From a virus, in UHGV virus genome UHGV-0288412: a DNA stretch of 27,321 bases, one strand, 5' to 3'. The position numbers were made by a program, and so were the translations under genes. Below the pieces are notes generated by a model. The model worked only from the letters and a program-made list of their open reading frames with translations. It was not told where the DNA came from and searched no databases. Shown here piece by piece: positions 5,301-19,531 of the stretch (the first letter of the stretch is position 1; every line of letters starts with the position of its first letter).

Positions 5301-6117
5301 GTAGATCCATCTGGCGTACTTGTTTACGTACTTTCAGGAATGAATCAACGTTAATGTTTTCAATTGGTACGGATAAGCCATATTTTTCATTTGTTAGGTA
5401 GTGGAAAATCTGATCCACGCCGTTAGTGCTAGCCTCAATAGCATTGGTTTCAAGGTTACGGATTTTAAGGCCGCAAACGTCTACTGCTACCTGGCTATTT
5501 GGCTGGAGAATATCAACACCAGCAGCAAGAGATTTGTCATCGCGACGCAACACAATACACATGGTTGCAATACCATTGCCTTTGTAGTTGTCGTTCCAGT
5601 CTGACCCTAAATGACGTTTTGCCAGTGACAATGCGGTGTTAGGATTCTTACCAGTGCGGAACTCAACCTCTAAGACTTTCCGGTATTCTTCTTTAATGTT
5701 GCCTTTGTCCAGTACACCATCACGGATCGTCATGTTCTTACCAACAAGAACATTTTTGTTATCGATAAACAGTGCTTTGTAATGGTCGATTTCACCCTCG
5801 GCAATAGCGAAGATTTGCACTAACTTATTGTTTTCTTGCTTGGAAATTGCTTTGTAAACGCAGATTGCACCCGTGCGGGTAGTACCGAAAATAACGGGTA
5901 ATACTGTCTTAGGATCGTTTGATGTTCCTAGTGTCACCGCATTATCTGGGCTTTGTACTTTCGGTGTTTTTGGTGCGCCTACAGTGGAAGCGATCAAAGT
6001 CATTGCACCAGCAGCCATACCGATAGCGACTGCGGTCATAACCGAAAATGTTGCGGCTGCCGCCATCCCAGCCGAAGCACCAGCAATAACCGCGCCTACC
6101 AATACTTCAAATCCCAT
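2341..6117 (-). CDS. Central tail fibre / tail tip protein, lambda gpJ-like (1258 aa)
   Basis: Size and position at the end of the M/L/K tip gene block; the last ~150 aa (GNITADSGTLNNVTINSSC...DRQIVIP...GVIDMPAGKGAVTLTFE...MVTKKATTGITVS) align by eye with my recollection of the lambda J receptor-binding C-terminus; start overlaps the upstream stop (TAATG). Confidence 0.8.
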   Translation of the reverse strand: MGFEVLVGAVIAGASAGMAAAATFSVMTAVAIGMAAGAMTLIASTVGAPKTPKVQSPDNAVTLGTSNDPKTVLPVIFGTTRTGAICVYKAISKQENNKLVQIFAIAEGEIDHYKALFIDNKNVLVGKNMTIRDGVLDKGNIKEEYRKVLEVEFRTGKNPNTALSLAKRHLGSDWNDNYKGNGIATMCIVLRRDDKSLAAGVDILQPNSQVAVDVCGLKIRNLETNAIEASTNGVDQIFHYLTNEKYGLSVPIENINVDSFLKVRKQVRQMDLHSNGACDPNASFKENLTSLMQTFGGVMFESFGRITLKLDAPDIVKHTFNEDNIMMGKVSLKTGGTNGYFNTINAMYQEPSIDYSEQMLRYPADAENDATIRQDGRIIAKDIEYRFVKSKAQIDKLASIERNKSRITQVISFMTTDAFTAEVWDVISVTYDELKLNNSLWRITAIDRSIDSGIAGMMTITATEYNSQVYTDLNYAANPDNRPSGLPDSMTVQKPTNFRIKATGETIYGKNVTLTWDAPEDFNRYGFQIDYRVSGSPNWIKLGQTSQQIFSVNALAKDRSYDYRVCAFGIIARSDWVELINQNPTVTYELPTPVIRIKNQGSTPGTFEGNDLIIEWENQQGLDVEINGETNKFSDLFEAYIIKVTNKAGKSIQYRTRDPESWTYTLDMNQFNGLSRQLTVEVSAKGYNNSESAPARLVAINPQHKPMKGFSARGGFNSVFVSWADDVEHDYAGSIIQYATDNTFSDARAVSTNSVSHTSFDLADGDYYLRAAHYDIFGMDDAVWSEPYFMQMRSTISWDDQDKEALEDLIGLQDRLDETIADAIAQAGANADAKIDAMHKQITTETGQTVQASANTLKSLIATSEQASSTKIDQVKAELKGDITKEVSASATTLKQAIATSEAASASKIDQVRVEMDGKIAGVNQEADVKIDALRGTINSKYNLAVNADGRVAGIHMSATNDPAQPTRIIFNADKIAVAPQNGSEVCPFGIEGNKVYLDNAMIRNAAIGTAQINDAAITTAKIGNAAINSAKIQDGAITNAKIVNGAIDNAKIGNYIQSSNWNGSTGWHINKNGSATFMNATVKGNITADSGTLNNVTINSSCVIKGMLEATQVKGDFVKVIGRKFPHRDVNVDNGYAGYPQGTVTVRVEDDHKFDRQIVIPAVSFGGLRAREGSNNNTYYDTCRLIVRKNGSELYNRAYGGNTGLYSGVIDMPAGKGAVTLTFEVQSSAINNWTPSTWISDLTVMVTKKATTGITVS
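2930..3130 (-). repeat. In-frame octapeptide-type repeats within the J-like gene
   Basis: Encodes NAAIGTAQINDAAITTAKIGNAAINSAKIQDGAITNAKIVNGAIDNAKIG; visible as ~24-bp periodicity in the DNA (aat tgc/acc gcc att ...). Confidence 0.5.
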
Positions 6118-6536
6118 TATTCACCCCCGAATCTATAAACTTGTTCATAGTCAATGTCTGAAACAGGAATGGTCATCCAGATACCATCTTCTTCAACGAG
6201 GCCATAACCGGAATAATGAGGAACTACGGAATAATAATTACGGTTTCCTAATTTGTGGGCTGTGACCAGTAAGTCGCCGTCCTGTAAATCATCAGTGACT
6301 AATTTGAAATGTTTCTTAATTGGTTGAAGGATATTTGAATACCCGCTTAATTCTTTGCAGATTTTCAAGCCTTCTTCTTTAGTTGAATATTTTTTATAAA
6401 GAGAATTATATAGGTCAGTACCAGCGAGAATATCGATGATCTTACATGCAATGAGATTGCAATCATTCTCGCCTTGAACGAACTCCTGACCTATTAAAGA
6501 ATTGATGTAATCGGTGATAAGCCTAGTTTTTAGCAT
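6117..6536 (-). CDS. Tail tip assembly protein, NlpC/P60-like (lambda gpK-like), 139 aa from the internal start
   Basis: Start placed at MLKTRL (ATG 6534-6536), which follows GGAGG and does not overlap the upstream gene; ENDCNLIACKII carries a candidate catalytic Cys with His residues downstream; position between the L-like and J-like genes as in lambda. Confidence 0.55.
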   Translation of the reverse strand: MLKTRLITDYINSLIGQEFVQGENDCNLIACKIIDILAGTDLYNSLYKKYSTKEEGLKICKELSGYSNILQPIKKHFKLVTDDLQDGDLLVTAHKLGNRNYYSVVPHYSGYGLVEEDGIWMTIPVSDIDYEQVYRFGGE

Positions 6537-6582
6537 GTTGAATACCTCCATGCTGTTATTTACTAGGCTTAGGGAGAAGGGA

Positions 6583-7236
6583 TTATTTCTTAGAAGAATG
6601 CCACTTGCTTTCGCTATTCCACTTCCCGGCACGGGAGAAGAATAGATCGTTCTCGTTTCCAACATAGGATCGGTGGATACCATCGGAGGCATGACTACGA
6701 GCGTTTTTATCTAGAACTTCCCAGATACTATTAAGCTGAAATTCTGATTCGTTTTTACACTCATCATCTTCATGTTCGATGTTAATCCCGATGGAATCGA
6801 CTACCCCACGGAAAACAGGGTAAGTGGTTTCAACTTTGCCCGTGTTGGGGTTCAGGAACACCATCTCGATTTTCACATCTGATTTATCGAATTGCTTGTT
6901 TCGAATGAGAGTAATGTATTCTTCGCGAACGTTAGAAACGGTTACGTTGATCCCGTTGTTGTTGATCTCCTTCTCTTCGGTATTCGATGAGATTTGAAGA
7001 AAATCACCCGTTGCGAGATACGTAAATCCGTTATAGTCCAAATCGAAATACCCATCAGTAAGCCGTAGAACGTCCCCTGACGCTGTAATCACTTCGATAA
7101 TGTGAAACATCGATCCAGTGGAAAAAAGCTGCGGTAGCGTCAATCTAGACACGTTCTGACCTGTCTGGTCGTTGTATACCTCAATGAAGTCAAGATTAGT
7201 GCATAGTTTGCTGAATGATTCCTGAATAGTTGCCAT
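6583..7236 (-). CDS. Minor tail protein (lambda gpL-like position), 217 aa from the internal start
   Basis: Start at MATIQESF overlaps the upstream stop as TAATG (translational coupling); position between the M-like and K-like genes. Confidence 0.5.
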   Translation of the reverse strand: MATIQESFSKLCTNLDFIEVYNDQTGQNVSRLTLPQLFSTGSMFHIIEVITASGDVLRLTDGYFDLDYNGFTYLATGDFLQISSNTEEKEINNNGINVTVSNVREEYITLIRNKQFDKSDVKIEMVFLNPNTGKVETTYPVFRGVVDSIGINIEHEDDECKNESEFQLNSIWEVLDKNARSHASDGIHRSYVGNENDLFFSRAGKWNSESKWHSSKK

Positions 7237-7796
7237 TATACATTCTCCACTAATTCGAATTTCATCTTGCCAATCTGGGCGATCTTCCAATCGATGTTTT
7301 CAGTTTTGAGAACAAATTCGCCTTCTACGTTTTGATACTTGATCACCTCACCCGCCAGGACGTTCTGACGCAAGTTAGGGAAGAGTTTCATTTCACCACC
7401 TGATTTCACATCTTCGGTGATCGTGTAGATTTTCTTGTGGTTCTCAAACTGGATGACAGTTCCCGCTTTCAGTGTTCCGGTGAAGTTGGAGATTCTCACC
7501 TTACGCCCACCGCGAGCAGTACCAGCAGCAGCCGTTACCATCTGGCGTACATCACCTGTATATTTTGAAAAGTAAGACAGTGGCACATTGAAAGGACGAC
7601 CAAAAAGGTGACGTGCTACAAATTCTTTTACTTCGTTAATATCCTGAGCCATGAAATTAGCTGTAAATTCTGCTTCATAAAAATGGATGCCAGTAAAGCG
7701 ACGCTGGAACTTACCGGAGATAGATTGCGCCTTGAAGAAAGGCTGTTTTGATTTAAGAGTAAAATCTGTGATTTTAATATTTTTGGATTTGAACAT
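7236..7796 (-). CDS. Minor tail protein / distal tail protein (gpM-position), 186 aa
   Basis: Directly downstream of the tape measure gene and coupled to the next gene; no specific motif recognised. Confidence 0.5.
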   Translation of the reverse strand: MFKSKNIKITDFTLKSKQPFFKAQSISGKFQRRFTGIHFYEAEFTANFMAQDINEVKEFVARHLFGRPFNVPLSYFSKYTGDVRQMVTAAAGTARGGRKVRISNFTGTLKAGTVIQFENHKKIYTITEDVKSGGEMKLFPNLRQNVLAGEVIKYQNVEGEFVLKTENIDWKIAQIGKMKFELVENV

Positions 7797-7846: not shown

Positions 7847-10273
7847 TTACATCTTACGACGCTGAACGTCTTCTATCGCCTGAGCAACAAACTTAGCGTG
7901 ACGTTTGATAGCATCCATGACCATCTTGTCTGAGCTATTAACGTTGCCGTTAATGTTCAAAGGCGCATTAACTTCAATCGGCTGAGAGTTGCCACCTGAT
8001 TTTTGAGCAGCAAGGAAGTCTTTCAAATCACCGTTAGTACGCTGATCAACTACTCGTTCACCCTTATCAAGCAACCATGTACCCTCACGCGGGATGTTAT
8101 CGATACCATCATGAGCCATACCGCTAACGTTAGTAGACTTGATGTTTGCGATGTTCCCCATGTTCTGAGAAACAGCCAATGCAGCAGCAGCGATCTTTTG
8201 TCCTGTGGTAACGTTGGTCGGATCGTTCCATGCATCGGTAGCAGCCGTCCACATGTTCACCGTCGCTTGTCCGATAGAGAATGCTTTATGAGCATTGAAA
8301 GCCATCTGCATAGCTTTAGTGTTTTCCTGCCCGAAGAGAGTCATTGCAGCAGCAAAACCGCCATACATATCATCGGCTATTGACTGTCGAGCATCAGCAT
8401 ATTTCTTCTCAATTGCAGCCATTCGTTTTTGATGGTTTTCATTGAGTTTTTCTAATGCTTCCATCCGTTTAGCCGGATCATTAATACCGTCAATCTTGAG
8501 TTTATCGGTCTTATAATCTTGTTCAGCATCCGATTTCTCTTTATCGATTGCATTAAATTTAGCAAACGGATTATTTGAGTCCTGATAGTCTAAGCTATTG
8601 GTCAACTGATTGGTTTTAAAACCATCCATTCCATGCAAAGAATCTTCAATCTGTGAATAACTTTGTTCGGTATCATTCACACGGCGCATATATTCTTCGT
8701 AGGAGATAGCCTTACCATCAAGTAACCGTTTATGGCTTTCTAACTCATTGTCCCTGATTTGTTGCAATTGTGTTAAAGCATTCAGAGCATCAACCGGATC
8801 AGCACCTAAGATCATTTTGTATACGTTTTCAGTATTCTGATCGATTAAGGATTGGCGTTTCGCGGCTGCGTCTTGCTGAGAGATTAAGCCCAGATCTAAA
8901 GCAGTATCCAAATCTTTCAAGCTGGCTTCTAACTGCTTGTTTTGAGAAGCAATAGACGCGGCGACTTGCCCTTGCAATTTAACATCAAGTGCATTCAGTC
9001 GCTTGATTGCATCCTCACGTTCTTTCTGTGCTTTTTCTGCGGCTTCCTTAGCCTTTTTAGCTGCCTCTTCCGCTTTCTTGCGCGCTTCTTCCTCGGCTTT
9101 CTTCTCGTTGCCAGACTTACCCAATGAAGCTGGTCGAGTTGGTGTAGTCGGGATAGTCAAATCACGGTTAGGATCTGCCTTGCGGGTTAGATGTTCCCCG
9201 TTATCGACAACAATCAGAGAGCCATTTTTCTTATAAGAATCACCAAAACGTTTCTTAAATCCTTCAACATCAAAGCCAGCAGTACGAGGATCGACACCAG
9301 CACCACGGATCGCGGCCTTTTCCCAATCTGCCAGATTATTCCAACGCTTTTCTTTATTGTACTTGTCAATAATCTTTTGAGCGTCTTTATGGTTGGTGTT
9401 AAGAATACCACCAGTTGCGGTCTTGCCTTCTTTATTCAGTCGATCTAATGCCCTGAATAGAGAACTCTTTTCCCAATCAATATTAAACCAGTCAAATAGC
9501 CAGTTTAAGCTATCAACCAAAGGACCAGTAATGGTCATGCCGACACCTTTCAGGTTATTTTCCAGCTTATTAATATTCTGAGAAAATTTATCATATTTTT
9601 TAGCGTTTTCTTCGGTGACGTTAACAGATTGATTCTGAATAGCGATCATCGCCTCTTGAGCACTATTATATTTCTCAAGCTGGCTGGTCATATGGCTTGA
9701 ATCACTGGATAAAGATTCCATCATGAACTTGATTTCAGCCATTGATTTTCCGGCTTTCTTCATGTCATAGAACACTTGGATCGCCGCTTTCATACCACCT
9801 TGCGGATCTGTCATGAAGTGAGCATAGTTTTCTAACTTAAGACCAACCGATTCTAAGTCATCAGCAATACCACCACCGTTAGCCCATGCATCACCCATTT
9901 TATCTAAGGTGTCTTTGTTGATATCACCAAATTTTTCAACTGTTAGGCCAGTGCCAGAAAATTCCTTTTCCAGTCTTTGAAGGGATTCAATCGAGAGTCC
10001 GGTCGCCTTAGATACTTCTGAATACTGTTTAACGTATTCCGCACCAGCTTTAGCGGCTGCAACCACTGCGGTCGCAACTAAGCCGATACCACCAGCAGCC
10101 AAACCAGCAGAGCCAGCGATCCCACGAAGAGATCCAGTCAAACCAGACAAGCCACCACCAAAATCAATACCACTTGCCTTTTCAGACAAACTATCGAGAA
10201 GGTCGGCGGCTTCACTGGTACTTCTCCTTAGACCTTTATTATCCCCTTCTATTGTTACTATATGTTTTGTCAT
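7847..10273 (-). CDS. Tail tape measure protein (808 aa)
   Basis: Long, Ala/Gly-rich N-terminus with Gly-rich hydrophobic stretch, extended charged coiled-coil segments (AEEEARKKAEEAAKKAKEAAEKAQKERE); lies immediately after the G/T chaperone pair. Confidence 0.8.
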   Translation of the reverse strand: MTKHIVTIEGDNKGLRRSTSEAADLLDSLSEKASGIDFGGGLSGLTGSLRGIAGSAGLAAGGIGLVATAVVAAAKAGAEYVKQYSEVSKATGLSIESLQRLEKEFSGTGLTVEKFGDINKDTLDKMGDAWANGGGIADDLESVGLKLENYAHFMTDPQGGMKAAIQVFYDMKKAGKSMAEIKFMMESLSSDSSHMTSQLEKYNSAQEAMIAIQNQSVNVTEENAKKYDKFSQNINKLENNLKGVGMTITGPLVDSLNWLFDWFNIDWEKSSLFRALDRLNKEGKTATGGILNTNHKDAQKIIDKYNKEKRWNNLADWEKAAIRGAGVDPRTAGFDVEGFKKRFGDSYKKNGSLIVVDNGEHLTRKADPNRDLTIPTTPTRPASLGKSGNEKKAEEEARKKAEEAAKKAKEAAEKAQKEREDAIKRLNALDVKLQGQVAASIASQNKQLEASLKDLDTALDLGLISQQDAAAKRQSLIDQNTENVYKMILGADPVDALNALTQLQQIRDNELESHKRLLDGKAISYEEYMRRVNDTEQSYSQIEDSLHGMDGFKTNQLTNSLDYQDSNNPFAKFNAIDKEKSDAEQDYKTDKLKIDGINDPAKRMEALEKLNENHQKRMAAIEKKYADARQSIADDMYGGFAAAMTLFGQENTKAMQMAFNAHKAFSIGQATVNMWTAATDAWNDPTNVTTGQKIAAAALAVSQNMGNIANIKSTNVSGMAHDGIDNIPREGTWLLDKGERVVDQRTNGDLKDFLAAQKSGGNSQPIEVNAPLNINGNVNSSDKMVMDAIKRHAKFVAQAIEDVQRRKM

Positions 10274-10276
10274 AAA

Positions 10277-10627
10277 TTACCCCGTTTGTGCGCTTCTGAG
10301 TTTCTCAAGCAAAGATGGATCGAACATGCTCAATGTTGCAGCTTTACGTTCTTCTTCTTTCTTGCGTGCAAGTTCTTCCATTTCTTCTTTAGTTTTAAAG
10401 AGTTTTTCTTCTCTAATTAACTGGAATTGGCTAGGCTTGAGTTTCTTTGCAGTTTCGCGTGTCATTCCTTGCGACGTCATATACATGGAATATTGCAACA
10501 TCGCATTCTGCATATCATGAAACGCGGGGCTTTGTGGTTCTAAGTAGGTGTCGAAAATGTATAATTTCCAAAACAGAGTGATTGGCATATTATCCATTTC
10601 ATCTTTACTAAGCCCCGATCTCATCAT
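10277..10627 (-). CDS. Tail assembly chaperone, T segment (expressed as a G-T fusion by -1 frameshift)
   Basis: ORF is in the -1 frame relative to the G-like ORF and stays open upstream to 10672, overlapping the last 5 codons of G; gene order matches lambda G/G-T/H. Confidence 0.55.
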   Translation of the reverse strand: MMRSGLSKDEMDNMPITLFWKLYIFDTYLEPQSPAFHDMQNAMLQYSMYMTSQGMTRETAKKLKPSQFQLIREEKLFKTKEEMEELARKKEEERKAATLSMFDPSLLEKLRSAQTG

Positions 10628-10656: not shown

Positions 10657-10663
10657 TTACTTT
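10657..10663 (-). promoter_or_regulatory. Candidate -1 frameshift site A-AAG-UAA at the end of the G-like gene
   Basis: Minus strand reads GAG GUA AAG UAA; tRNA-Lys on AAG can re-pair on AAA in the -1 frame, and the following stop would slow the A site; the -1 frame then continues VNPLLNFYFRQMMRSG... into the T ORF. Confidence 0.45.
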
Positions 10664-10965
10664 ACCTCGTTTTCAATTACTGCCGGATCTTGCATCAATG
10701 ATGCTTGAGCAACCAAACCGATTAATTCACTGCGGACGTTAGTATACAGTGCCTTAACTTGTTCCATAGATTCAAATACTGGCTTACCGTCTTCATCTTC
10801 AATACAACGAAGAATCGAACGTTCATCACGGTCATCTTTATCGGTATTGAAAACATGTTCGTTAAATTCTTTTACTGACATAGGGCGAGCATAGAAAGTG
10901 AATCCACCGATGGTCAGAGATTCACGTTTCGGAGAAAGAGCTTTCAGCATTTCATTAATATTCAT
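10657..10965 (-). CDS. Tail assembly chaperone, gpG-like (102 aa)
   Basis: Small acidic protein immediately upstream of the T segment and tape measure gene; ends ...ENEVK-UAA. Confidence 0.55.
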   Translation of the reverse strand: MNINEMLKALSPKRESLTIGGFTFYARPMSVKEFNEHVFNTDKDDRDERSILRCIEDEDGKPVFESMEQVKALYTNVRSELIGLVAQASLMQDPAVIENEVK

Positions 10966-11007: not shown

Positions 11008-11514
11008 TTAAGAGATTTTCAAAGTCTGCTTAGTGCCAGTCTTCTTAATGTTGGTAAGGAAAGCAGCCGGAGGATTGCTTAACCAATAGTAATGAAAACC
11101 ACTTTGCATACTGTTATAAGGAACAGTGACAGCAGCACCACCCAAATTAACGGTTATATTCCCCGCTCTACCGTTCTGGAGATATACAGCCATAGTAGGA
11201 GTACCGCCATTGAATTGACCAACGATAACGCCAATCAGACGCCCTACGCCCACGTTTTCGGGGTTCTCCATAGATCCTTTACCGCGCATGTCAGTTACTG
11301 GATAGTTTGAAGCAGTTACACCCCAGTTATTACCCAATGAAGTAGACCACGCAGCAGTAGCTACAACCGTATCCATACCACGACCACACATCGCACTCAT
11401 GTTAGCTGGGCGACTAACCTTTAATGCGTTCATTGCTGCGCTCATCCATCGTTGACCAGTTACAGAAACAGCAGATGACCCGACCCAGCCAGGCTTATTA
11501 ACGACATTCGCCAT
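11008..11514 (-). CDS. Hypothetical Gly/Ala-rich protein (168 aa), probably tail-associated
   Basis: Clean ORF with GGAG Shine-Dalgarno, between the upstream terminator and the G-like gene; no motif recognised. Confidence 0.4.
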   Translation of the reverse strand: MANVVNKPGWVGSSAVSVTGQRWMSAAMNALKVSRPANMSAMCGRGMDTVVATAAWSTSLGNNWGVTASNYPVTDMRGKGSMENPENVGVGRLIGVIVGQFNGGTPTMAVYLQNGRAGNITVNLGGAAVTVPYNSMQSGFHYYWLSNPPAAFLTNIKKTGTKQTLKIS

Positions 11515-11527
11515 TTTGATTACTCCA

Positions 11528-11558
11528 ATAAAAAAGCCCCACCATTAAGGCAGGGCTT
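11528..11558 (-). terminator. Rho-independent terminator (copy A)
   Basis: Minus strand AAGCCCUGCC-UUAAU-GGUGGGGCUU followed by UUUUUU; a 10-bp stem with two G-U pairs. Near-identical to the terminator at 17364-17390. Confidence 0.7.
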
Positions 11559-11562
11559 ATAA

Positions 11563-11688
11563 TTAATCTTTAGCCTTGCGGCCTCGTTTTGCTGTGGCTT
11601 TCGCCGTAACTTCTTCTACTTCTGGAATCACCACCGCTTCATGTTCCGGCAGTGGTTCCGGTTCTGGTAAAGGAAGTTCTTCGTTAGT
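11563..11688 (-). other. In-frame 41-codon extension after the UGA stop of the 157-aa gene (candidate readthrough product)
   Basis: After UGA (11689-11691) the same frame reads TNEELPLPEPEPLPEHEAVVIPEVEEVTAKATAKRGRKAKD before UAA at 11563-11565; verified codon by codon. Confidence 0.55.
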
Positions 11689-12162
11689 TCATCCAGCGGT
11701 AAACACTTCCTGTTTCAGCGGAGCACCATCAACGGCAAAGGTAAACTCTTTAGTTACCACTTCTTCATCGCCACCGTTCATAGCAACTTTAGAAATGAAG
11801 CCGTTGTAAGCAATGCGAATACCAGTCTGTTTTCCGGCGTCAACATAATACTCTACTTTGATCTGGCAGCGAGTGCCGTCTTCGGCAGCTTTTGCGAGCT
11901 TCTCGTGTACCGCATCACCTGGGATGTAGTTAACGGTCAGAGTCAGATCTTCAACGTTCAGTTTACCAACCAGCTTACGGTTATACTGAGAAGAATACGA
12001 TTTGACTTCTACCGTACCGCGAGACAGTGAATATTCAGGAAAACCAGCACACTCTTTAATTTCTTCGTATGCTTCATCGGCAAGGTCGGTGTTAGTGGTA
12101 TCGGCGTGATAGAACAGACTTACCAGACCACCAGTAAAAATATCTTTGAATTGCTGAGACAT
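11689..12162 (-). CDS. Structural protein, possibly tail-tube-like (157 aa), ending at UGA
   Basis: Follows the fibre gene; pattern VGKLNVEDLTLTVNYIPGD...QIKVEY loosely resembles the core of the V-like protein at 15794-16627; ends VFTAG-UGA in the context GCUGGAUGAACUAAC. Confidence 0.45.
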   Translation of the reverse strand: MSQQFKDIFTGGLVSLFYHADTTNTDLADEAYEEIKECAGFPEYSLSRGTVEVKSYSSQYNRKLVGKLNVEDLTLTVNYIPGDAVHEKLAKAAEDGTRCQIKVEYYVDAGKQTGIRIAYNGFISKVAMNGGDEEVVTKEFTFAVDGAPLKQEVFTAG

Positions 12163-12219
12163 AGAATTACCCCTTAATTAAAATTGTTTATAACGGGGGA
12201 ACTAGTCCCCCGACTTTTA

Positions 12220-12561
12220 TTATTTAGTTGCTTTCAGTTCGGCAATTTCTTTCTGTAATGCTTCGATCTGTGCTTTATATTTGGCGTCCATTTCCTGCAT
12301 AGCCTTGATGATTAAAGCATTGACAGCAGAGTTAGAAATAGTCTTGATTGCTTCTGGATTTTCTGGATCATCGGTGGATTGAATACCTACTGCTTCCGGC
12401 AATACTTCTTCCAGATCCTGAGCAATAATACCTACTTCGCGTTTAATCACACTACGGTCTTTAAGAGATTTAACTTTATCGTAGGTGTAGACTTTCAGTG
12501 AGTTTACTTTCTCTAATGCGCCGTCCTGTAATTCTTCCTTGTTAATTTTCAAACGGGAGTC
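12220..12561 (-). other. Intramolecular chaperone domain of the tail fibre; predicted autocleavage at the S/D junction in RSDSRLK
   Basis: Conserved S-D-x-R-L-K-x-N motif at residues ~1052-1059, followed by a coiled-coil C-terminus (AQIEALQKEIAELK). Confidence 0.6.
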
Positions 12562-15500
12562 AGAGCGAATGTAAACATCGTTAAAGCTACCGTTACGACC
12601 TGCGGTAAAGTCACCAGCAGCGTTAAAGTCAAAGTTAGTATCATGAACATGGAGACGAACAAGAGCGTTACCGATAGTACCGCTAGGAACATGCACACCC
12701 ATTGCTGCAATGTGATATTTACCTTGATGGGTTGCTTTCCAGATGTTATGAGCGGAATCGGTTGATTGCTGGCAGTCGACCTGAATACCGGAAGCACGAT
12801 CACGCCAGCTAGCCCAACTACCACCAGCAACGCTACCACGAATAAGACCATTACCGCCACCGGATACAGTGCCCGTTTCAAGGTGAATCATCTTACCGCC
12901 GAATTTCCAGACTTCGGCTTGTTTCTCACCGCGCATACGCATAACACCAGCATCATCGCAGTACAACAGACCCAACTCTAAGCCGTTTGGATCTCTAAAC
13001 CATAAATGCTTGTTACCGCTTCGTTTAAATTCAATATCAGCACCGTTGATAGTGATATTACCGCCAGTGTGAATTGCTTTAGGCTTAACAGTACCGTTAA
13101 TGGAAAACTCGATTAATTCAGTACCCGGACCACCCGGTCGTTGTGTGTACCAGTGCCAACCGCTTTCATCAGCGCATTCGAATACTTGTTTACGAGCATC
13201 AGCACCCCATGCACGAATATTAAACGTTGATGTGGCGGTCCCCTTACCCCAACGAATTTGTCCAGCAGCTTCCAAATCACCGAAGAATTTAGTTTTAATC
13301 GCACCAGTTGCTAAAGTACGTTCAGTGGTGAAGTGTGCACCTTTGCTATCGTCAAGCTGTAGGATGTTATCACGAGCGTTATTACTATCGCCCCAATGGT
13401 TAAACCGGAAATAATCACGAGAATTTAATCGTCCAGCATCAAAGGTTAACATCCCATTACCGACATAAATGTCACCCGCAAAACGAGCAGCACGGCTATC
13501 TCTTTCGAGAACTAATGCACCTTCGTTACCATCACCACCTAACGTAACTTTACCCGTTGACAGGTCGTAAATGAATGGTCGGTTGCCGTTCCAACCACCA
13601 AATTTATCGTTTTCAGCAGTAGACAACAAATATACTTTTTGACCATCATTACGCCAGAATGCACCGTAGTTACCATAGATCATACGGAATGCGTTAGCGT
13701 ATGCAGCAACATATTCGCCGTTGGTGTATACAATTTTTGTTTTGCCAGTGGATAATGAAACCTGACCGTTCTCATCTAGACGTAATGAGTTATTACCTTC
13801 GGTTAATTCGTTTACTAGCTGCAACGTGTTAGTAGTTCCATCACCATAGCCTAGATAACCTTGACGGCGGTTAGCACCACTACGATAATCCATAAACTCC
13901 ATGTAGTTGCTTTGTCCGGTGCGTCGTTCCATTCGGATAGCATTATTGCCCTTAGTGAAAAGACGAACAACGGAAGTTCCGTTAGAGTCAATTCTTAATT
14001 TCTCGTCGGCATCAGTAGTACCCGTTGCTAGGCGATAGGTGCTACCTTCAACAGTTTCATGCCATATGGTCTCTACGGCTTGGCTACGGAATTTACGCAG
14101 ATATTTTTTAGCGCGTTCTTGTGTATTACTCAAACTTACAATATCGTAAGTTGCTTGTGAGTTATTATCAAAAGACAGAGTACCGCGTTTATTTTCAGTG
14201 TTAAACAGAGTAATAACTCGACCTTCGTTAACACCAGTAGACGGTTTAACGAGAGTTAATTCAGGCGTATCATACACATTTAAAGTCACATCAGCACTTT
14301 TACCGTACTCTACAGTTACTTTATCGGTATATTTGCGATATTTCACGTATACATCATAGTTATCGCCAGAAGTATTGACCGCAAAGGTTTCAAATTCATT
14401 ATTAGTATTTCGACGATAAGCTACAACGTTTACACCTTTCGGGTTTCCATTACCGGAACGGATAACAATTTCTACAATATCACACTGATCAGGACTATTA
14501 ACGTTATAACCATTCCCACCGAAAATACGGATGAAAAAGCCTCGACCACCTTGTGGAATTGTTGCCGTTGCCAGTTTAAAGTAACCAGCCGCATTTTCAC
14601 CAGTTGACATATGAACGGGTTTAGTGAACATCTGATCAACTTCGGCTTTACTATACACACCCAATTCAGTCGGAGTCGGCTTATCACCTTCGTGATACAT
14701 GCGGTAGCTGAATCGCTTATTACCATCTTTATCAAAGCCATAGGTTTTAACTTGAGATGAGCTAGACCCATAGTGGAACTCAAAACCGCGACCGTGTGCT
14801 TTACCGCCAGAATGAGGAATGTTAAGGATTAAGTTACCCCAACCTTCGGCATTGTTTGGACGGAATGCACCAAAATAATCAAGGTTACGAGCACCAGCAT
14901 CATCAAAATAGTTAGCTGTTTTGGTTAACAGATAGCCGTGATGGTAAGTGTTGGTATTCTTCTTGATGTAAGCAGCATCGGCACTACCTTCAATCGAATC
15001 AATTCGCTGGTTAGCTGCGGCAATTGCGGCATCAGTAGAAGATTTATTCTGGTCTACCTTGTTGTTAATTGCGGTATGGTTGCTATTAACAGTGCCAGTA
15101 AGATTGGTGATCTTCGTGTCGGCATCGCGTTTATTATTTGCTACGGTCGTTTCTATGGCTGATTTATTTGCTGCGACAGTATTCGTTAAGTTGGTAACGT
15201 TGGTATTAGTCTGATCAACTCGCGCATTAATATCTGTCTTGTTCTTGTTAATTGTCGCGTTGATAGTATCGCGGGTTGAAGTAATAGTCTGATTCAGTTC
15301 AGTCTTAGCAGCCGCCAGAGCGTTAGCCGCTTCGGTTTTATTGTTACCTACTGTGGTAGTCAAAGCATCAATTCGTTTGTTGGCTGCGTTATCTCCAGCA
15401 GTGATTGAAGCATTGAGAGTATCACGGGTAGAAGTGATAGTCTGATTCAGTTCAGCTTTAGCACTAGCCAGATTATCAGCGGCTTCTTGTTTGTTGGAAG

Positions 15501-15717
15501 CAATAACACGGTCAGTGTTGGTTTTGTTATTGTCTACTTTCGTATTCAGTTCAGCGTGTTTTTCTGGAGAAACACTAATTTGAACTACTGCGTTATTTTT
15601 ATCTTTGGTATACAGAACGTGATCAGCAAGGTTAATAGCCAATTCACCCTGTGATAATTGTTCCGGCGTTGGTTTTTTACCAGCCGTCTGTGTGCGTTTA
15701 AATTGGATTGATTGCAT
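12220..15717 (-). CDS. Long tail fibre with C-terminal intramolecular chaperone (S74-type autoproteolytic domain), 1165 aa
   Basis: N-terminus QFKRTQTAGKKPTPEQLSQGELAINLADHVLY is a recurrent fibre N-terminal motif; long N/T/A-rich coiled-coil region; C-terminal ~113 aa beginning SDSRLKINKEEL... matches the chaperone domain of T5 L-shaped fibre and endosialidases as I recall it. Confidence 0.8.
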   Translation of the reverse strand: MQSIQFKRTQTAGKKPTPEQLSQGELAINLADHVLYTKDKNNAVVQISVSPEKHAELNTKVDNNKTNTDRVIASNKQEAADNLASAKAELNQTITSTRDTLNASITAGDNAANKRIDALTTTVGNNKTEAANALAAAKTELNQTITSTRDTINATINKNKTDINARVDQTNTNVTNLTNTVAANKSAIETTVANNKRDADTKITNLTGTVNSNHTAINNKVDQNKSSTDAAIAAANQRIDSIEGSADAAYIKKNTNTYHHGYLLTKTANYFDDAGARNLDYFGAFRPNNAEGWGNLILNIPHSGGKAHGRGFEFHYGSSSSQVKTYGFDKDGNKRFSYRMYHEGDKPTPTELGVYSKAEVDQMFTKPVHMSTGENAAGYFKLATATIPQGGRGFFIRIFGGNGYNVNSPDQCDIVEIVIRSGNGNPKGVNVVAYRRNTNNEFETFAVNTSGDNYDVYVKYRKYTDKVTVEYGKSADVTLNVYDTPELTLVKPSTGVNEGRVITLFNTENKRGTLSFDNNSQATYDIVSLSNTQERAKKYLRKFRSQAVETIWHETVEGSTYRLATGTTDADEKLRIDSNGTSVVRLFTKGNNAIRMERRTGQSNYMEFMDYRSGANRRQGYLGYGDGTTNTLQLVNELTEGNNSLRLDENGQVSLSTGKTKIVYTNGEYVAAYANAFRMIYGNYGAFWRNDGQKVYLLSTAENDKFGGWNGNRPFIYDLSTGKVTLGGDGNEGALVLERDSRAARFAGDIYVGNGMLTFDAGRLNSRDYFRFNHWGDSNNARDNILQLDDSKGAHFTTERTLATGAIKTKFFGDLEAAGQIRWGKGTATSTFNIRAWGADARKQVFECADESGWHWYTQRPGGPGTELIEFSINGTVKPKAIHTGGNITINGADIEFKRSGNKHLWFRDPNGLELGLLYCDDAGVMRMRGEKQAEVWKFGGKMIHLETGTVSGGGNGLIRGSVAGGSWASWRDRASGIQVDCQQSTDSAHNIWKATHQGKYHIAAMGVHVPSGTIGNALVRLHVHDTNFDFNAAGDFTAGRNGSFNDVYIRSDSRLKINKEELQDGALEKVNSLKVYTYDKVKSLKDRSVIKREVGIIAQDLEEVLPEAVGIQSTDDPENPEAIKTISNSAVNALIIKAMQEMDAKYKAQIEALQKEIAELKATK
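15259..15472 (-). repeat. Imperfect direct repeat (~60 bp, two copies 154 bp apart) inside the fibre coiled-coil region
   Basis: gttgatagtatcgcgggttgaagtaatagtctgattcagttcag (15259-) against cattgagagtatcacgggtagaagtgatagtctgattcagttcag (15413-); encodes AELNQTITSTRDT(L/I)NA twice. Confidence 0.65.
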
Positions 15718-15748
15718 CTAGAATCACCTCACTATAAAACAGGAATAA

Positions 15749-15766
15749 GGGAGGCGTTAACCTCCC
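15749..15766 (-). promoter_or_regulatory. Intergenic hairpin between the V-like gene and the fibre gene (possible attenuator)
   Basis: GGGAGG-cgttaa-CCTCCC with a moderately U-rich 3' side on the minus strand; placed where tube-versus-fibre expression ratio could be set. Confidence 0.4.
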
Positions 15767-15793
15767 CGCGTCATGTTTTATTTAGGAAGTGAA

Positions 15794-16627
15794 TCAATAC
15801 TCCCCGAAATCGACTCTATCGGTCTTAGCTACTGCGCCAATTTCGCTAGGTGTCGGTTTCTCATTGGTGGAATATACCTTGATCCATTCAGAACGACCGT
15901 TTTCCTGAATATTTCGGACACGTAAACGCGGTGCGCCAGAAGTATTACAGGTTAATTGCCATGCGCCATGCTCATTAGCTTGAAGGTGAATTAATGATGT
16001 GTCGGTTGAATATGGATTACCGCTAGCAGTTCCCTTGTAAGTTACGAAACGGTTTCCGGCTAATGCCTCGCTATCAATCGGACCCGTGAATGGATTTACA
16101 CCAGCACCCAAACCAAAATCACCCTGACGTAAGATCCGGCCTTCGGTAGCAATACCCCTTGCCAAAATCCCGCCATCTGGTTCAAGTTTAAATTCCAGTG
16201 TTACAGCTTTGTTATCGCTACCACGGGTTTTATGTGATGTGACGTAAGCATCATAGATGACATAGTAACCAGTGTTAGCAGCACTATAGCCAGAGTTAAC
16301 AACATAGAACATACGGAAGCGTAAAGGTGTTTTATCCTCTACCGCTTTCATCAACAATGCTTGATGTTCGTCATCCAGAACACGGTTTAATGTGAGTGTT
16401 GTTGGTTCCAGTCTACGATAACCAGCAAGTTTCCCCGTAGCGTCCTGATCGTACTCTTCCAGAGTTTCAATCTCTGTGGATTCGGTTAGCGTAGGGAATG
16501 CTGCGACGTTCTCAATAGAACTAAAGCTAGGATCGAAAAAGTCCGGCTGGCTATCGACCATAGTAGACACGGAGACTTCAACATGCGACCCCGTAAAAAT
16601 ATCTAAGTTATCATGCGTAATATTCAT
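15794..16627 (-). CDS. Major tail tube protein, lambda gpV-like (277 aa)
   Basis: EEYDQDATGKLAGYRRLEPTTLTLNRVLDDEHQALLMKAVEDKTPLRFRMFYV parallels my recollection of lambda V (ESYDDS...TATGQ...FTLAW...[20 protein letters not shown]); follows the U-like gene; C-terminal extra domain ending KPTPSEIGAV. Confidence 0.6.
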   Translation of the reverse strand: MNITHDNLDIFTGSHVEVSVSTMVDSQPDFFDPSFSSIENVAAFPTLTESTEIETLEEYDQDATGKLAGYRRLEPTTLTLNRVLDDEHQALLMKAVEDKTPLRFRMFYVVNSGYSAANTGYYVIYDAYVTSHKTRGSDNKAVTLEFKLEPDGGILARGIATEGRILRQGDFGLGAGVNPFTGPIDSEALAGNRFVTYKGTASGNPYSTDTSLIHLQANEHGAWQLTCNTSGAPRLRVRNIQENGRSEWIKVYSTNEKPTPSEIGAVAKTDRVDFGEY

Positions 16628-16636
16628 TATTACCCC

Positions 16637-17059
16637 TTAAAAACGCGCTAGATAAGAAAATTTAAGGCTAAGTGTCCCAACGATACCCCCATCACTAGAA
16701 TCATCGTCATAATCGGTATTAGAAGCTACTGGAGTGATATCTGAAATAGAGAAGCCCAAATCTTTAAAACGTGGGTTATCTGGCTGAATCTGGATTATCT
16801 GGCAAATACCCTCATGGATTTTGGTTTCATGAATCTGAGAATACAATTGCATTTCGATAACGCATTCAGCTTGCATTGCATTACCACCACGGACCCTATT
16901 GTAAGTCTCATTCATTCCGGTAATCCAACAAACCACATCATCACTAAAGCCTTGCTGAGTTTGTTCTACGTTTAAAGCCAGACCTAAATCTTGTTCGATA
17001 ATATCCTGCAAGGCGCGTTTGATTTTCAGTCTCGGCATATTATTAACGGTAGCGAGCAT
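16637..17059 (-). CDS. Tail terminator protein, lambda gpU-like (140 aa)
   Basis: VVCWITGMNETY...AECVIEMQLY...DYDDDSSDGGIVGTLSLKFSY parallels recalled lambda U (AVAVYLTGAEY...AELHIEVFL...DYRRDDDAGLWSSADLTYVITYE); position upstream of the V-like gene. Confidence 0.5.
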   Translation of the reverse strand: MLATVNNMPRLKIKRALQDIIEQDLGLALNVEQTQQGFSDDVVCWITGMNETYNRVRGGNAMQAECVIEMQLYSQIHETKIHEGICQIIQIQPDNPRFKDLGFSISDITPVASNTDYDDDSSDGGIVGTLSLKFSYLARF

Positions 17060-17333
17060 GTGTACCCCCTGCTAAAGTGATAAAGCAATCAGTTGTATTG
17101 TCACCATTGCGCTTAACGTATTGAACTTTGAAACGCTGGTTTTCTACTGTGACAATATCACCTTGCTTTAAGTCTCCCTCACGACAAAATAGAAATTCGG
17201 TTTCTGTCATTACCCCTGATTCGTCGGTAGTAGTAATTTCATGATAAGCACGAATTGATTTACCACCTTCCACCGAAAATACAGGAGCACTTCGGAACAT
17301 TCTTGATAATTGTGATTCTGATAATTTGAACAT
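17043..17333 (-). CDS. Head-tail joining protein, lambda gpFII-like (96 aa)
   Basis: FLFCREGDLKQGDIVTVENQRFKVQYVKRNGDNTTDCFITLAGG parallels recalled lambda FII (LFVRTDEVRQLRRGDTLTIGEENFWVDRVSPDDGGSCHLWLGRG); first gene after the capsid terminator. Confidence 0.45.
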   Translation of the reverse strand: MFKLSESQLSRMFRSAPVFSVEGGKSIRAYHEITTTDESGVMTETEFLFCREGDLKQGDIVTVENQRFKVQYVKRNGDNTTDCFITLAGGTHARYR

Positions 17334-17363: not shown

Positions 17364-17390
17364 AAAAAAGCCCCACCGTTAGGCAGGGCT
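17364..17390 (-). terminator. Rho-independent terminator (copy B)
   Basis: Minus strand AGCCCUGCC-UAAC-GGUGGGGCU followed by UUUUUU; near-identical to copy A at 11528-11558. Confidence 0.7.
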
Positions 17391-17395
17391 AATTA

Positions 17396-17524
17396 TTATT
17401 CTTTAGTTTTACGTTGTTTTTTAACTGTGGCTTTCGCCGTAACCTCTTGAACTTCTTCTTCCTGAGATGGAATCAGATTTTCTTCCCCCAAATCGGGGGA
17501 AGGTTCAGAAGGTTCTACGCTAGT
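17396..17524 (-). other. In-frame 42-codon extension after the UGA stop of the capsid gene (candidate readthrough product)
   Basis: After UGA (17525-17527) the same frame reads TSVEPSEPSPDLGEENLIPSQEEEVQEVTAKATVKKQRKTKE before UAA UAA; verified codon by codon. Confidence 0.55.
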
Positions 17525-19531
17525 TCATTCAGCGGAGATGTGAAGAACTTTCAGAGCTTCCGGCTGAGTAACAACATAATCCAGGTCTACCCAGATACGC
17601 GGAACAATTGCGGACTGTGCACGGTAGGTCGTGTCGTCCATATCCAATTCCAGACCGCCCCACTCACCGATAGTAATACCGGAGAAGTCACCCAGAACGA
17701 TGTGGTCTGCCGGAATAACGCCAGAAGTAACTACATCGTAACCAGCCAGTTTGCCGTTTTCGATGATATAACCGGAAACGCCGTTATCTTTCAGGGTAGA
17801 TTCCAGTTCAGCAGCAGTTGCACCGCTCATCGCAAACTTGATCGCCTGAGCAGGAACGCCAGCGTCAGTCAGTGCTGCAATTTCTTTCAGGAAGTCTTTG
17901 TAAGAGAAAGCGGCTTTCTTAGTAACGCGACCACCGTCTACCAGTTGTTTAACCAGACCAGCCGGACCGCGAGCATTTTCTTTATCAGACAGAATCAGTT
18001 GTTCCAGTTTGATGCGAACAGCTTTGTTAATGTGATCAGTGATCAGGGTAGCGATGCCCGGAACAGTTTTCAGCGACTGACGGCTGATCGGGTTGCCACC
18101 AGCAAAAGTTTTCGGAGACAGTTTCACGTTCGCAAATTCAGCTTTGCTTTCCGGTGCAGCACCGTTTTCATCAACGAAGCCGAAAGCGTCAACGCTGGAA
18201 GCGGTCATTTTTGGAATAGCGGTCGGAGCATTCAAGCCACTGTAAACAGTCACACCGAGGCGGCCTAAAACACTCTGAGGCAACAGCATTTCTACATAGG
18301 ATTCGGTCAGCAGTTTTTCGTCGGTGATAGCAGTCAGATCGGCTTTGGTGTTACCAGCAGCAGCAGCACGCATAGCAGCAGCCGGAACGAATACAGAGCC
18401 ACCGCGAGCAGCACGACCACGCTGCATAGTTGCAGTAGCAGCCATTGCGGAATATTCAGCTTCGTTAGCACCCAGAGCAGCACCATCTACCAGAGAGCGA
18501 ATTACGTTGTTCAGGTCAAAAGTTTTTTCCATGATTTGTTCCTTATTAATTTGTTCGTTATTACGTTGAGCATTGGTAATGTTATTTAGTGCCTTAGTGC
18601 GGAATGCTTCCGGCGTCATGTCTTTAATTGCCAATGCGCGTTTTAATTCTTCGTCGTCAATATTTAGTTCCCGCGCGATCTCGCGGATTTCTAATTCGTC
18701 TTCTTCGGAACGTTCAGCCACTTCCTCGGTTTTTTCTTCTTCAACCGGAACGGCTTCACGTTCTTCTTTTACTTCTTCTGTTTCCCGAACAGTTGAACTA
18801 TCATCATCAACACTTTCAGGATGTTCAGCGTCTTTTCCGTCTTCGAGATTTTCATTTTCTTTATTCTCTTCAACTTGGCGCTCTTGAGTTTCTTCAACTT
18901 CCGATTCTTTATTTTCTTCTACCGGAGTTTCTTCAACCTGAGCGGATTCTTGTTCTTCTTTGATTTCTTCAATTTGTTCTTTAGTCATATCGCGTTTAGC
19001 CTCCAAATTAACTGTGATAGTATTTAGAGAGCGATTTAAACCGACCGTATCGTCTGCGGGAACGGTGACAAATGAGAGTTCATAGGGTGCCCACTTAGTA
19101 ACAATCAATTGCCCTTTGGCGTAATCGATGTGATATTCTTTAATGTCATAGCCGACAGAAATTTTTTCCATCGTACCTTCAATGACTTTATTACGAATAT
19201 CATTAGCCATAGTCCCATGCTTGGAGAACTTAACCAGAGCACGACCTACGTTATCCGCATCGATTCGAGCGTTACAAACGACACCAATGTGATTATCGAA
19301 ATTGTGATTGAACAGCAACGGAGCGTTATTATTCAGACGAGACAGATCAACCGCTTCCGGTGTATGTACCAGAATTTCATCTAATACCACCATTTCTTGA
19401 TTTTGCTCATCCCAGAATTGGCGCTGATAAGGCTGTTCACTGGAGAAAGCAATTTCAAATTCGTATTGATCGTTATGCCCTTCGTTAATAACTCCACCGT
19501 AACCGTTAAGATCGCGGCGAAATTTAAGCAT
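17525..19531 (-). CDS. Fused prohead protease (HK97/S78-type) - scaffold-like acidic linker - major capsid protein (668 aa), ending at UGA
   Basis: N-terminus PLLFNHNFDNHIGVV...GRALVKF...ISVGYDIKEY fits the S78 prohead protease pattern (catalytic His and Ser); central Glu-rich coiled-coil (EEIKEEQESAQVEETPVEENKESEVEE...); C-terminal ~370 aa capsid-like; follows the portal gene; AGGTGA Shine-Dalgarno. Confidence 0.8.
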   Translation of the reverse strand: MLKFRRDLNGYGGVINEGHNDQYEFEIAFSSEQPYQRQFWDEQNQEMVVLDEILVHTPEAVDLSRLNNNAPLLFNHNFDNHIGVVCNARIDADNVGRALVKFSKHGTMANDIRNKVIEGTMEKISVGYDIKEYHIDYAKGQLIVTKWAPYELSFVTVPADDTVGLNRSLNTITVNLEAKRDMTKEQIEEIKEEQESAQVEETPVEENKESEVEETQERQVEENKENENLEDGKDAEHPESVDDDSSTVRETEEVKEEREAVPVEEEKTEEVAERSEEDELEIREIARELNIDDEELKRALAIKDMTPEAFRTKALNNITNAQRNNEQINKEQIMEKTFDLNNVIRSLVDGAALGANEAEYSAMAATATMQRGRAARGGSVFVPAAAMRAAAAGNTKADLTAITDEKLLTESYVEMLLPQSVLGRLGVTVYSGLNAPTAIPKMTASSVDAFGFVDENGAAPESKAEFANVKLSPKTFAGGNPISRQSLKTVPGIATLITDHINKAVRIKLEQLILSDKENARGPAGLVKQLVDGGRVTKKAAFSYKDFLKEIAALTDAGVPAQAIKFAMSGATAAELESTLKDNGVSGYIIENGKLAGYDVVTSGVIPADHIVLGDFSGITIGEWGGLELDMDDTTYRAQSAIVPRIWVDLDYVVTQPEALKVLHISAE

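Follow-up and report, generated by a model that had tools for sequence, protein, structure and literature searches.

To our knowledge, how side fibres are mounted on a non-contractile tail has been established in very few phages: T5, through its collar, and lambda, through Stf. The L-shaped fibres of T5 and the Stf fibres of lambda are side fibres that confer reversible primary adsorption. The T5 fibre protein pb1 ends in an S74 intramolecular chaperone and is carried by the p132 collar, whose protein is immunoglobulin (Ig)-like and not a paralogue of the tail tube; in lambda, the stf and tfa genes are situated downstream of J. Here, we describe a locus in a 27,321-nucleotide (nt) stretch of the virus genome UHGV-0288412 (henceforth the window, i.e., the entire stretch analysed) that likewise appears to equip a non-contractile tail with side fibres. 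Its fibre gene, whose product carries a C-terminal S74 domain as pb1 does, lies not downstream of J but between genes resembling lambda U and V, and no Tfa is encoded in the window. Immediately upstream of the fibre gene lies a gene for a 277-residue protein that joins a tail tube domain to a C-terminus resembling that of the T-even fibre protein gp36. All genes of the tail block are on the minus strand.

The T-even phages offer the closest parallel for the fibre itself. T4 gp36 is trimeric and attaches to the N-terminal region of gp37 (PMC3004832). Like the gp36–gp37–gp38 system of RB49-like Krischvirus phages and T2, the window encodes a fibre with a gp37 N-terminal domain and an S74 chaperone that is 68% identical to gp37 over 900 residues, a protein whose C-terminus is homologous to that of gp36 down to the terminal DFGxY/F, and a 168-residue protein bearing the Gp38_N tip-attachment domain. 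Unlike the T-even phages, it encodes no homologue of gp34 or gp35 and no contractile-tail baseplate; in place of a gp35-binding N-terminus, the gp36-like module has a siphovirus tube domain, the fibre contains a predicted coiled-coil insert of about 210 residues, and the gp38-like gene lies beyond the tube gene, its product being without the C-terminal Pfam domain GP38. The parallel for the tube domain is found in lambda gpV and SPP1 gp17.1* (PMC8718954). Both the N-terminal domain of the 277-residue protein and a 157-residue protein encoded downstream of the fibre belong to the gpV-type tube fold or family, and the 157-residue protein, encoded upstream of the chaperone genes G and T, appears to have a minor C-extended form, as in SPP1. 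In contrast to lambda and SPP1, the window has two paralogous tube genes, the extension of the 277-residue protein is a fibre connector rather than an Ig or FN3 domain, and the extended form of the 157-residue protein would arise by UGA readthrough instead of a frameshift.

We consider it likely that the region encodes the modular long side fibre of a lambda-like siphovirus prophage of Escherichia coli together with the true tail tube gene of that phage, and that the 277-residue protein is the fibre anchor, a diverged duplicate of the tube protein with a gp36-like C-terminus. The functional order in the window is U, then anchor and fibre, V, the gp38-like gene, G, T, and the tape measure gene H.

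A tube-fold protein with a gp36-like C-terminus

The 277-residue protein (15794–16627) is composed of two parts. The first, comprising residues 1 to about 162 (16142–16627), has a predicted tube fold. The profile phrog_158 ("major tail protein") matches residues 16–154 (E 1.3e-8), and AlphaFold2 (AF2) models most of residues 13–162 with a predicted local distance difference test (pLDDT) score of 70–91, with dips near 56–68 and 110–120. The modelled domain retrieves tube proteins in Foldseek searches (E 1e-7 to 1e-6), with lambda gpV first (7t4f, 8k36, 7t2e; E 1e-7), as well as the YDC107 tail core and the 80alpha tube. Judging from this model, the protein is V-like at the level of fold. An earlier note, made from the window's letters, had taken it for the V-like tail tube protein; the fold bears out the likeness, and yet the protein is probably not the tail tube, as the 157-residue protein is the better match to tube families. 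The two align at 31% identity over 156 residues, which is the whole of the 157-residue protein (E 4e-18), and are by this alignment paralogues. The 277-residue protein has no match in Pfam or NCBIfam, and a sequence search of the PDB returned no relative of either protein at E values up to 1.

The second part, residues 180–277 (15797–16090), aligns with residues 396–496 of RB49 gp36, running to both C-termini, at 30% identity (BLASTP, E 5e-5). It ends in DFGEY, an instance of the DFGxY/F motif that terminates both proteins. Relatives strengthen the match: a 482-residue homologue (P0077) aligns with residues 229–496 of RB49 gp36 at E 1e-17, with a second match to the end of the profile phrog_16472, at its C-terminal side (E 7e-20), and another homologue, from contig L035, has a weak match to the Pfam family Phage_T4_gp36. 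The similarity concerns the portion of gp36 that adjoins gp37. The full gp36 architecture is lacking, as the N-terminal 160 residues are a tube domain and there is no gp35-binding part. Readthrough from this gene into the fibre gene was also considered, and is ruled out by in-frame stops in the 76-nt spacer.

A tube fold does not by itself place a protein in the tube, since the same fold is reused in distal tail (Dit), hub and terminator proteins. The last of these roles is filled by the 140-residue protein encoded directly upstream (16637–17059). Its AF2 model (mean pLDDT 78.8) retrieves lambda gpU (3fzb), the T5 terminator p142, and the neck terminators of T1, NF5 and SaPI1 from the PDB (Foldseek, E 7e-6 to 1e-3), and by this model it is a gpU-like tail terminator, so that the phage would possess a terminator of its own. 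With a gpU fold in the 140-residue protein, and with tube proteins as the best structural matches of the 277-residue protein, the latter is ruled out as the terminator. The 277-residue protein might instead be a Dit- or hub-type adaptor at the tip, or a collar like T5 p132, that holds the fibres at the distal end outside the tube. This would agree with the usual distal location of receptor-binding fibres, and with the T5 L-shaped fibres, which hang from a collar near the tip. However, its tube domain is closely paralogous to the tube protein of this phage along the full length of the latter (31% identity), its best structural matches are tube proteins and not Dit or hub proteins, a separate pb9-like Dit of 186 residues is encoded downstream, and its gene stands at the head-proximal end of the tail block. 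We therefore regard such a role as rather unlikely.

A gp37-type fibre and its probable joint to the anchor

The 1165-residue protein (12220–15717) was identified as a fibre in the earlier note, and this identification is borne out: it matches phrog_1699 at E 2.6e-142 as well as the Pfam families Gp34_trimer and Peptidase_S74, the latter at residues 1052–1110 with 52 bits against a cutoff of 22. Four segments can be distinguished. Residues 1–51 (15565–15717), hereafter the socket, correspond to residues 4–54 of RB49 gp37 (BLASTP, 47% identity). They are followed by a predicted coiled-coil insert of about 210 residues (residues 52–261, 14935–15564) that is absent from RB49 gp37. The body, residues 262–1162, corresponds to residues 71–977 of RB49 gp37 at 68% identity, and includes the S74 segment, a putative intramolecular chaperone. 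At the DNA level, identity to gp37 of RB49-like krischviruses is about 77% across 12289–14883. Sequence comparison thus points to a full-length gp37 homologue, with both the N-terminal domain and the C-terminal chaperone region included. Within the fibre family, conservation is highest at the two ends (91% at the N-terminus and in the chaperone) and lower in the middle (47–79%). No other gene varies as much between close relatives as that of the fibre, with 54–89% identity versus 87–99% for the 277-residue protein.

The strongest argument for treating the 277-residue protein as the proximal piece of this fibre comes from the joint between them. At seven of seven split-fibre joints (those of the window, RB49 and five relatives, including the three-piece fibre chain of a Proteus prophage), the upstream piece ends in ...KPTxxDxGAV....xDxGxx-COOH, and the downstream piece begins with M..IQFKR...G..PT...GELAIN..D..YTKD. 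Because these motifs recur at every joint, the 277-residue protein is assigned as the proximal fibre piece, joined to the 1165-residue protein as gp36 is to gp37. By analogy with the T4 biochemistry (PMC3004832), the C-terminus of the 277-residue protein would physically bind the N-terminus of the gp37-type fibre, the one serving as plug and the other as socket.

The Proteus prophage provides a further view of such joints. A separate 198-residue protein is encoded there (L028 10882–11478) that appears equivalent to the insert plus socket of the window's fibre (insert at 14935–15564), as judged by the shared N-terminal domain and by the C-terminal sequence of the Proteus protein rather than by direct alignment. 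This protein ends in its own plug, DFGTF, and the gene after it, which is gp37-like, has a socket of its own. The Proteus case suggests that fibre pieces are fused and split at the plug/socket joint.

The probable tail tube protein and a putative readthrough peptide

If the 277-residue protein is an anchor, the tube must be built of something else, and the 157-residue protein (11689–12162) is the obvious candidate. The earlier note had listed it merely as a readthrough gene within a fibre cassette, an assignment that does not survive comparison, as it is itself a tube homologue and a stronger one than the 277-residue protein. Its match to phrog_158 has an E value of 1.1e-20; phrog_41 and phrog_1407 match as well, as do the tail tube families TTP_11, TTP_12 and Phage_tail_2 of Pfam and tube_lmo2291 of NCBIfam, these four at E 2e-5 to 1.5e-3 and all below curated cutoffs. 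A homologue is named "phage tail tube protein" by PGAP/RefSeq. In all eight of the distant relatives introduced below, the orthologue lies directly upstream of G, where in the window the gp38-like gene intervenes. One orthologue, in contig L026, carries a C-terminal Ig/Hoc-like domain, as lambda gpV does. By codon adaptation index (CAI), the 157-residue protein ranks first in the module (0.533) and the capsid protein second (0.496). These features, the adjacency to G, the Ig domain in L026, the CAI, the RefSeq name, and a readthrough and terminator module like that of the capsid gene, together indicate that the 157-residue protein is probably the real tail tube, the equivalent of lambda V and the major tail protein; as such, it would be the abundant tube subunit.

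The converse assignment deserves consideration, with the 277-residue protein as a major tube protein bearing a fibre-like decoration at its C-terminus, the 157-residue protein as a minor ring such as a tube initiator, and fibres all along the tail or on many of its rings. The 277-residue gene does follow the terminator gene directly, as V follows U in lambda, its product has the gpV-like fold, and C-terminal decoration domains are common on tube proteins, SPP1 gp17.1* being one example (PMC8718954). Nevertheless, its CAI is low, at 0.302 against 0.533, and in no relative does its gene adjoin G and T, whereas the 157-residue gene shares the readthrough tail and terminator of the capsid gene and adjoins G and T in distant relatives. 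Where an Ig-like decoration does occur, in L026, it is on the orthologue of the 157-residue protein. Furthermore, the homologues of the 277-residue protein are mostly fibre fusions (342–1563 residues), for the most part complete fibres of 600–1500 residues, which are implausible at some 200 copies per tail. On balance, we find this assignment improbable.

The capsid gene and the 157-residue gene share an unusual 3′ end. Both terminate in TGA-ACT, beyond which the reading frame continues without a stop for 42 codons after the capsid gene (17399–17527) and for 41 codons after the tube gene (11566–11688, or 11566–11691 with the TGA included; TAA at 11563–11565). Both extensions encode a proline-rich linker of acidic character and, at the C-terminus, a shared basic peptide (VTAKATxK..RK.K), and both are followed by a near-identical terminator, at 17369–17390 and 11534–11558, respectively. 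The tube-gene TGA-ACT is invariant in 25 of 25 sequences. The extensions behind it are 36, 39 or 41 codons long, with indels that are all in-frame and a conserved C-terminal peptide, VTAKATAKRxRKAK. Capsid-gene spacers from relatives encode the same kind of tail, some capsid variants ending in an AT-hook-like GRPPK, and in the Edwardsiella and Proteus relatives the tube protein has a short homologous tail constitutively, without an internal stop. The RNA downstream of the TGA is predicted to fold (z -2.7 for the tube gene, -4.0 for the capsid gene). Taken together, the sequences make it probable that programmed UGA readthrough adds the same peptide to both the capsid and the tube protein. A formal precedent is found in the Listeria phages PSA and A118, whose major capsid and tail proteins are C-extended by programmed frameshifting. 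As in these phages, both the capsid and the tail gene of the window appear to yield a minor C-extended form; unlike in these phages, the extension is proposed to arise by in-frame UGA readthrough, and both proteins would receive an identical kind of short basic peptide.

An ancestral fibre slot with exchangeable content

The placement of the fibre module upstream of G and T, rather than downstream of the tip protein, had been noticed earlier and is real. It had been explained by the horizontal acquisition of a host-range cassette (11008–15793) with its own expression control, inserted between V, taken to be the 277-residue gene, and G/T. A recent acquisition of this kind has several observations in its favour. 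The body of the fibre shares about 77% DNA identity with krischvirus gp37, the N-terminus of the gp38-like protein is up to 72% identical to that of JSE gp38, the fibre is the most variable gene among relatives, and hairpins flank the fibre gene on both sides. Against it stands, above all, the gene order. Among 24 close relatives in IMG/VR, 19 show the full order of 96-residue, 140-residue and 277-residue genes, fibre, 157-residue gene, gp38-like gene, G, T and tape measure, and the remaining five are truncated contigs that agree with it. The core, consisting of an FII-like gene, a U-like gene, a tube::fibre gene, accessory fibre genes, a short tube protein, G and T, is retained in eight of eight distant relatives (phage DCP80, the Proteus and Edwardsiella prophages, and five further contigs from metagenomes, read-run or other assemblies), of which DCP80, the only one measured, has proteins 33–43% identical to those of the window. 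Because the order is kept in both close and distant relatives, the layout is ancestral and uniform in this widespread, uncharacterised lineage, which has long and stably kept a fibre slot between U and V.

The remaining evidence is in keeping with this conclusion. The supposed cassette includes the 157-residue gene, whose product is the stronger tube homologue and which adjoins G in relatives, and the 277-residue protein encoded outside the cassette carries a fibre connector domain. With the 157-residue protein as V, the only gene left strictly between V and G is the gp38-like gene, and this only in the E. coli clade. The GC content, the GC content at third codon positions and the CAI of 11008–15793 fall within the range of the flanking tail genes. 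A scan for sigma-70 promoters found 16 promoter-like sites versus 18.2 expected by chance from shuffled sequence, none of them convincing upstream of the fibre or gp38-like genes, and thus gave no sign of a dedicated promoter or of separate expression control. The synteny contradicts a recent insertion, composition shows no anomaly, and the cassette scenario as a whole is very improbable. Its notion of horizontal exchange does hold, for what is exchanged is the content of the slot, as indicated by the resemblance to krischvirus gp37 (68% in protein, about 77% in DNA) and by the variability of the fibre.

The content of the slot indeed varies widely among the distant relatives. It may be a single fibre gene (L036, L037), a fibre gene with a Caudo_TAP chaperone (L034), two or three fibre pieces (DCP80, L035, the Proteus prophage), or a fibre gene with a full gp38 gene in front of the tube gene (the Edwardsiella prophage). 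A more distant Vibrio phage with one tube gene has the order tail completion protein, tube, a "tail-component" gene and chaperone.

The lineage is broad. Of 5426 complete E. coli genomes, 55 (~1%) carry the element, among them that of strain MEI003 (NZ_CP071263, prophage at about 228–259 kb), and a profile search of 1.84 billion cluster representatives identified 279 relatives of the 277-residue protein. Among the 149 representatives listed that were not previously known, 111 combine an N-terminal tube domain and a fibre in one protein of 342–1563 residues (median 924), and where such tube::fibre proteins were scanned, the remainder of each matches tail-fibre families. A tblastn search with the 277-residue protein against 50,697 phage genomes matched DCP80 only. 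The family has no characterised isolate, and the distant DCP80 is its sole member in that collection. DCP80 is itself peculiar (L001, PQ671644.1, positions 1–32000). This Escherichia phage of 141 kb is recorded as a member of Straboviridae/Gaprivervirus and has genes of T4 type (motA, endonuclease VII), yet its structural genes form the lambda-like siphovirus module seen in the window, with a gpA terminase, a protease–capsid fusion, tube::fibre, tube, G, T, tape measure and J. Either its taxonomic label is wrong or it is a large hybrid genome.

The transcription signals noted earlier were all located, along with the open reading frames (ORFs), on the minus strand, and a further hairpin was added to them. 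The hairpin in the spacer between anchor and fibre genes (15748–15767) reads GGGGAGG-TTAACG-CCTCCCT with a T-rich tail, is conserved in sequence in all relatives whose spacer could be extracted, and is possibly a weak terminator or attenuator. The additional one (12194–12212), situated between fibre and tube genes, reads CGGGGGA-CTAGT-TCCCCCG; it was scored on the plus strand, the palindrome being the same on both strands, and is likewise conserved in relatives. Neither spacer hairpin shows covariation or compensatory changes among relatives. The strong intrinsic terminator after the tube gene (11534–11558) is nearly identical to the strong terminator after the capsid gene (17369–17390), and is also conserved. 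Together, the hairpins and the post-capsid and post-tube terminators look like the usual attenuators that follow abundant structural genes.

The gp38-type protein and neighbouring genes

The 168-residue protein (11008–11514) is, by its sequence, a putative gp38-type tip adhesin. It matches the Pfam family Gp38_N (PF21721) with 57 bits against a cutoff of 25 (E 1.9e-15) and phrog_1121 "tail fiber adhesin" (E 2e-33), its N-terminal 40–50 residues are 46–72% identical to T2 and JSE gp38, with the highest value for JSE, and a homologue is called "receptor recognizing protein Gp38" by PGAP. Over its full length, the protein matches best the adhesin of Shigella Stx phage 75/02 (44.6%), which the C-terminal part resembles. 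It has no match to the GP38 C-terminal Pfam domain (PF05268), which comprises glycine-rich motifs and hypervariable segments and which is present in the 256-residue Edwardsiella homologue. The position of the gene differs between clades. In the Edwardsiella prophage (L030 14524–15294), the gene, encoding Gp38_N and GP38, follows the fibre gene directly and precedes the tube gene; in the E. coli clade, the shorter gene, encoding Gp38_N only, follows the terminator of the tube gene; and in JSE, an RB49-like phage, ~108 kb separate genes 37 and 38.

Downstream of it lie the putative chaperone genes G (10657–10965) and T (10277–10627). Their matches to the Pfam families TAC_13 and Phage_tail_T, respectively, are weak (both E 3e-4 and below curated cutoffs), with phrog_344 giving a further match (E 3e-7). 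Relative to G, T lies in the -1 register, with its frame open from position 10672, and it has no ribosome-binding site. The sole plausible shift site is A_AAG_TAA at the G stop (GTA AAG TAA, 10657–10672), and no canonical XXXYYYZ heptamer was seen. Position, sizes and the -1 frame geometry fit lambda G/GT, with this sequence as a candidate -1 shift site only. A G homologue of E. coli MEI003 (L031 12458–12766, WP_112037349.1) is labelled "cytochrome" in RefSeq, which looks like an annotation error.

The tail block as a whole comprises, in the order of transcription, the protease–capsid fusion gene (17525–19531), its terminator, the gene for a 96-residue FII-like protein (17043–17333; a match to Pfam Phage_attach is below cutoff), the 140-residue terminator-like and 277-residue anchor genes, a hairpin, the fibre gene, a hairpin, the 157-residue tube gene, its terminator, the gp38-like gene, G, T, the tape measure gene (7847–10273), and the genes for the 186-residue pb9-like Dit, two small tail proteins and a 1258-residue J-like tip protein. 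At 6117–7290, the mechanically called ORFs of 235 (TTG start) and 191 residues overlap their neighbours by 55 and 110 bases, respectively. Their true starts are probably internal, since the RefSeq homologues are 217 and 139 residues long (DUF6950).

A model for fibre assembly and its history

Starting from the observed homologies, paralogy, conserved gene order and joint motifs, we infer how the fibre would be mounted; the place of its ring, which may be next to the terminator or next to the tip, and the number of fibres per virion are more conjectural still. First, the tube-fold domain of the anchor would be incorporated in the tail, or added onto it, as a ring like those of the tube. Its gp36-like C-termini would then form trimers, to which the gp37-like N-terminal domain of the fibre would dock by a plug-and-socket joint of the T-even type. 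The C-terminal S74 chaperone of the fibre would be cleaved off after folding, and the gp38-like protein would cap the fibre tip as receptor-binding adhesin. Gene order, with the anchor gene between terminator and tube genes, weakly suggests a head-proximal ring, while function suggests a distal one. By the rule of thumb of 0.15 nm of tail per tape measure residue, the 808-residue tape measure gives a tail of roughly 120 nm. A 210-residue coiled coil together with the gp37-like body gives a fibre of roughly 90 nm, and these lengths favour neither position. As for the history of the locus, anchor and fibre are one polypeptide in most relatives, and here would have been split at the gp36/gp37-type joint; the distal part of the fibre would have been exchanged with T-even (Krischvirus-like) phages.

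Several points weigh against this reading. The presence and place of the 277-residue protein in the virion are deduced indirectly, from genes and models. The C-terminal half of its model has a pLDDT of 29–61, too low for fold comparison, which leaves the gp36-like fold to sequence similarity, and the match of the window protein itself to gp36 is modest, with 30% identity and a pairwise E value of only 5e-5. There is no simple mapping of a hexameric tube ring onto trimeric fibres, although six C-termini would make up two trimers. The anchor gene adjoins the terminator gene, where lambda has V, which is compatible with a decorated tube subunit. CAI and terminator placement, both invoked for the 157-residue protein, are mere proxies for abundance. 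Finally, the 168-residue protein is without the C-terminal GP38 domain, and its adhesin role is deduced from the N-terminal domain and the family names.

Implications

The individual parts of this system are known, namely gp36, gp37, gp38, the lambda-type tube, gpU and G/T. Their combination, in which a tube-paralogue anchor between U and V is coupled to a gp36/gp37 joint in a siphovirus, appears undescribed: a literature search covering tube-domain fibre anchors, gp36 fusions in siphoviruses, DCP80 and capsid/tail readthrough, itself incomplete in coverage, found nothing describing the arrangement. The oddity that drew attention to the locus, a fibre upstream of G and T, is real and more general than the earlier note had it. 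A more far-reaching reading can be put forward tentatively. A widespread lineage of lambda-like siphoviruses, with a gpA terminase, a protease–capsid fusion and a J-type tip, may bear its long fibres on a dedicated ring of tube paralogues; a universal gp36-C/gp37-N coupler may move fibre modules, gp38 included, between myoviruses and siphoviruses; and a peptide added by UGA readthrough may decorate both capsid and tail proteins.

If true, the tube-paralogue anchor would be a different solution to fibre attachment, and one that is easily recognised in genomes. It would explain the recurrent "fibre slot" upstream of the tube gene, and would correct annotation, in that the first tube-like gene after the terminator gene is not V; the 111 representatives with this architecture are now labelled "hypothetical" or "major tail protein." The short conserved joint, in which ...DFGxY/F meets ...IQFKR...GELAIN..., would be a swap point between the fibre modules of T-even phages and those of temperate siphoviruses, and could serve both host-range engineering and the prediction of prophage tropism in E. 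coli, Salmonella, Shigella, Proteus and Edwardsiella.

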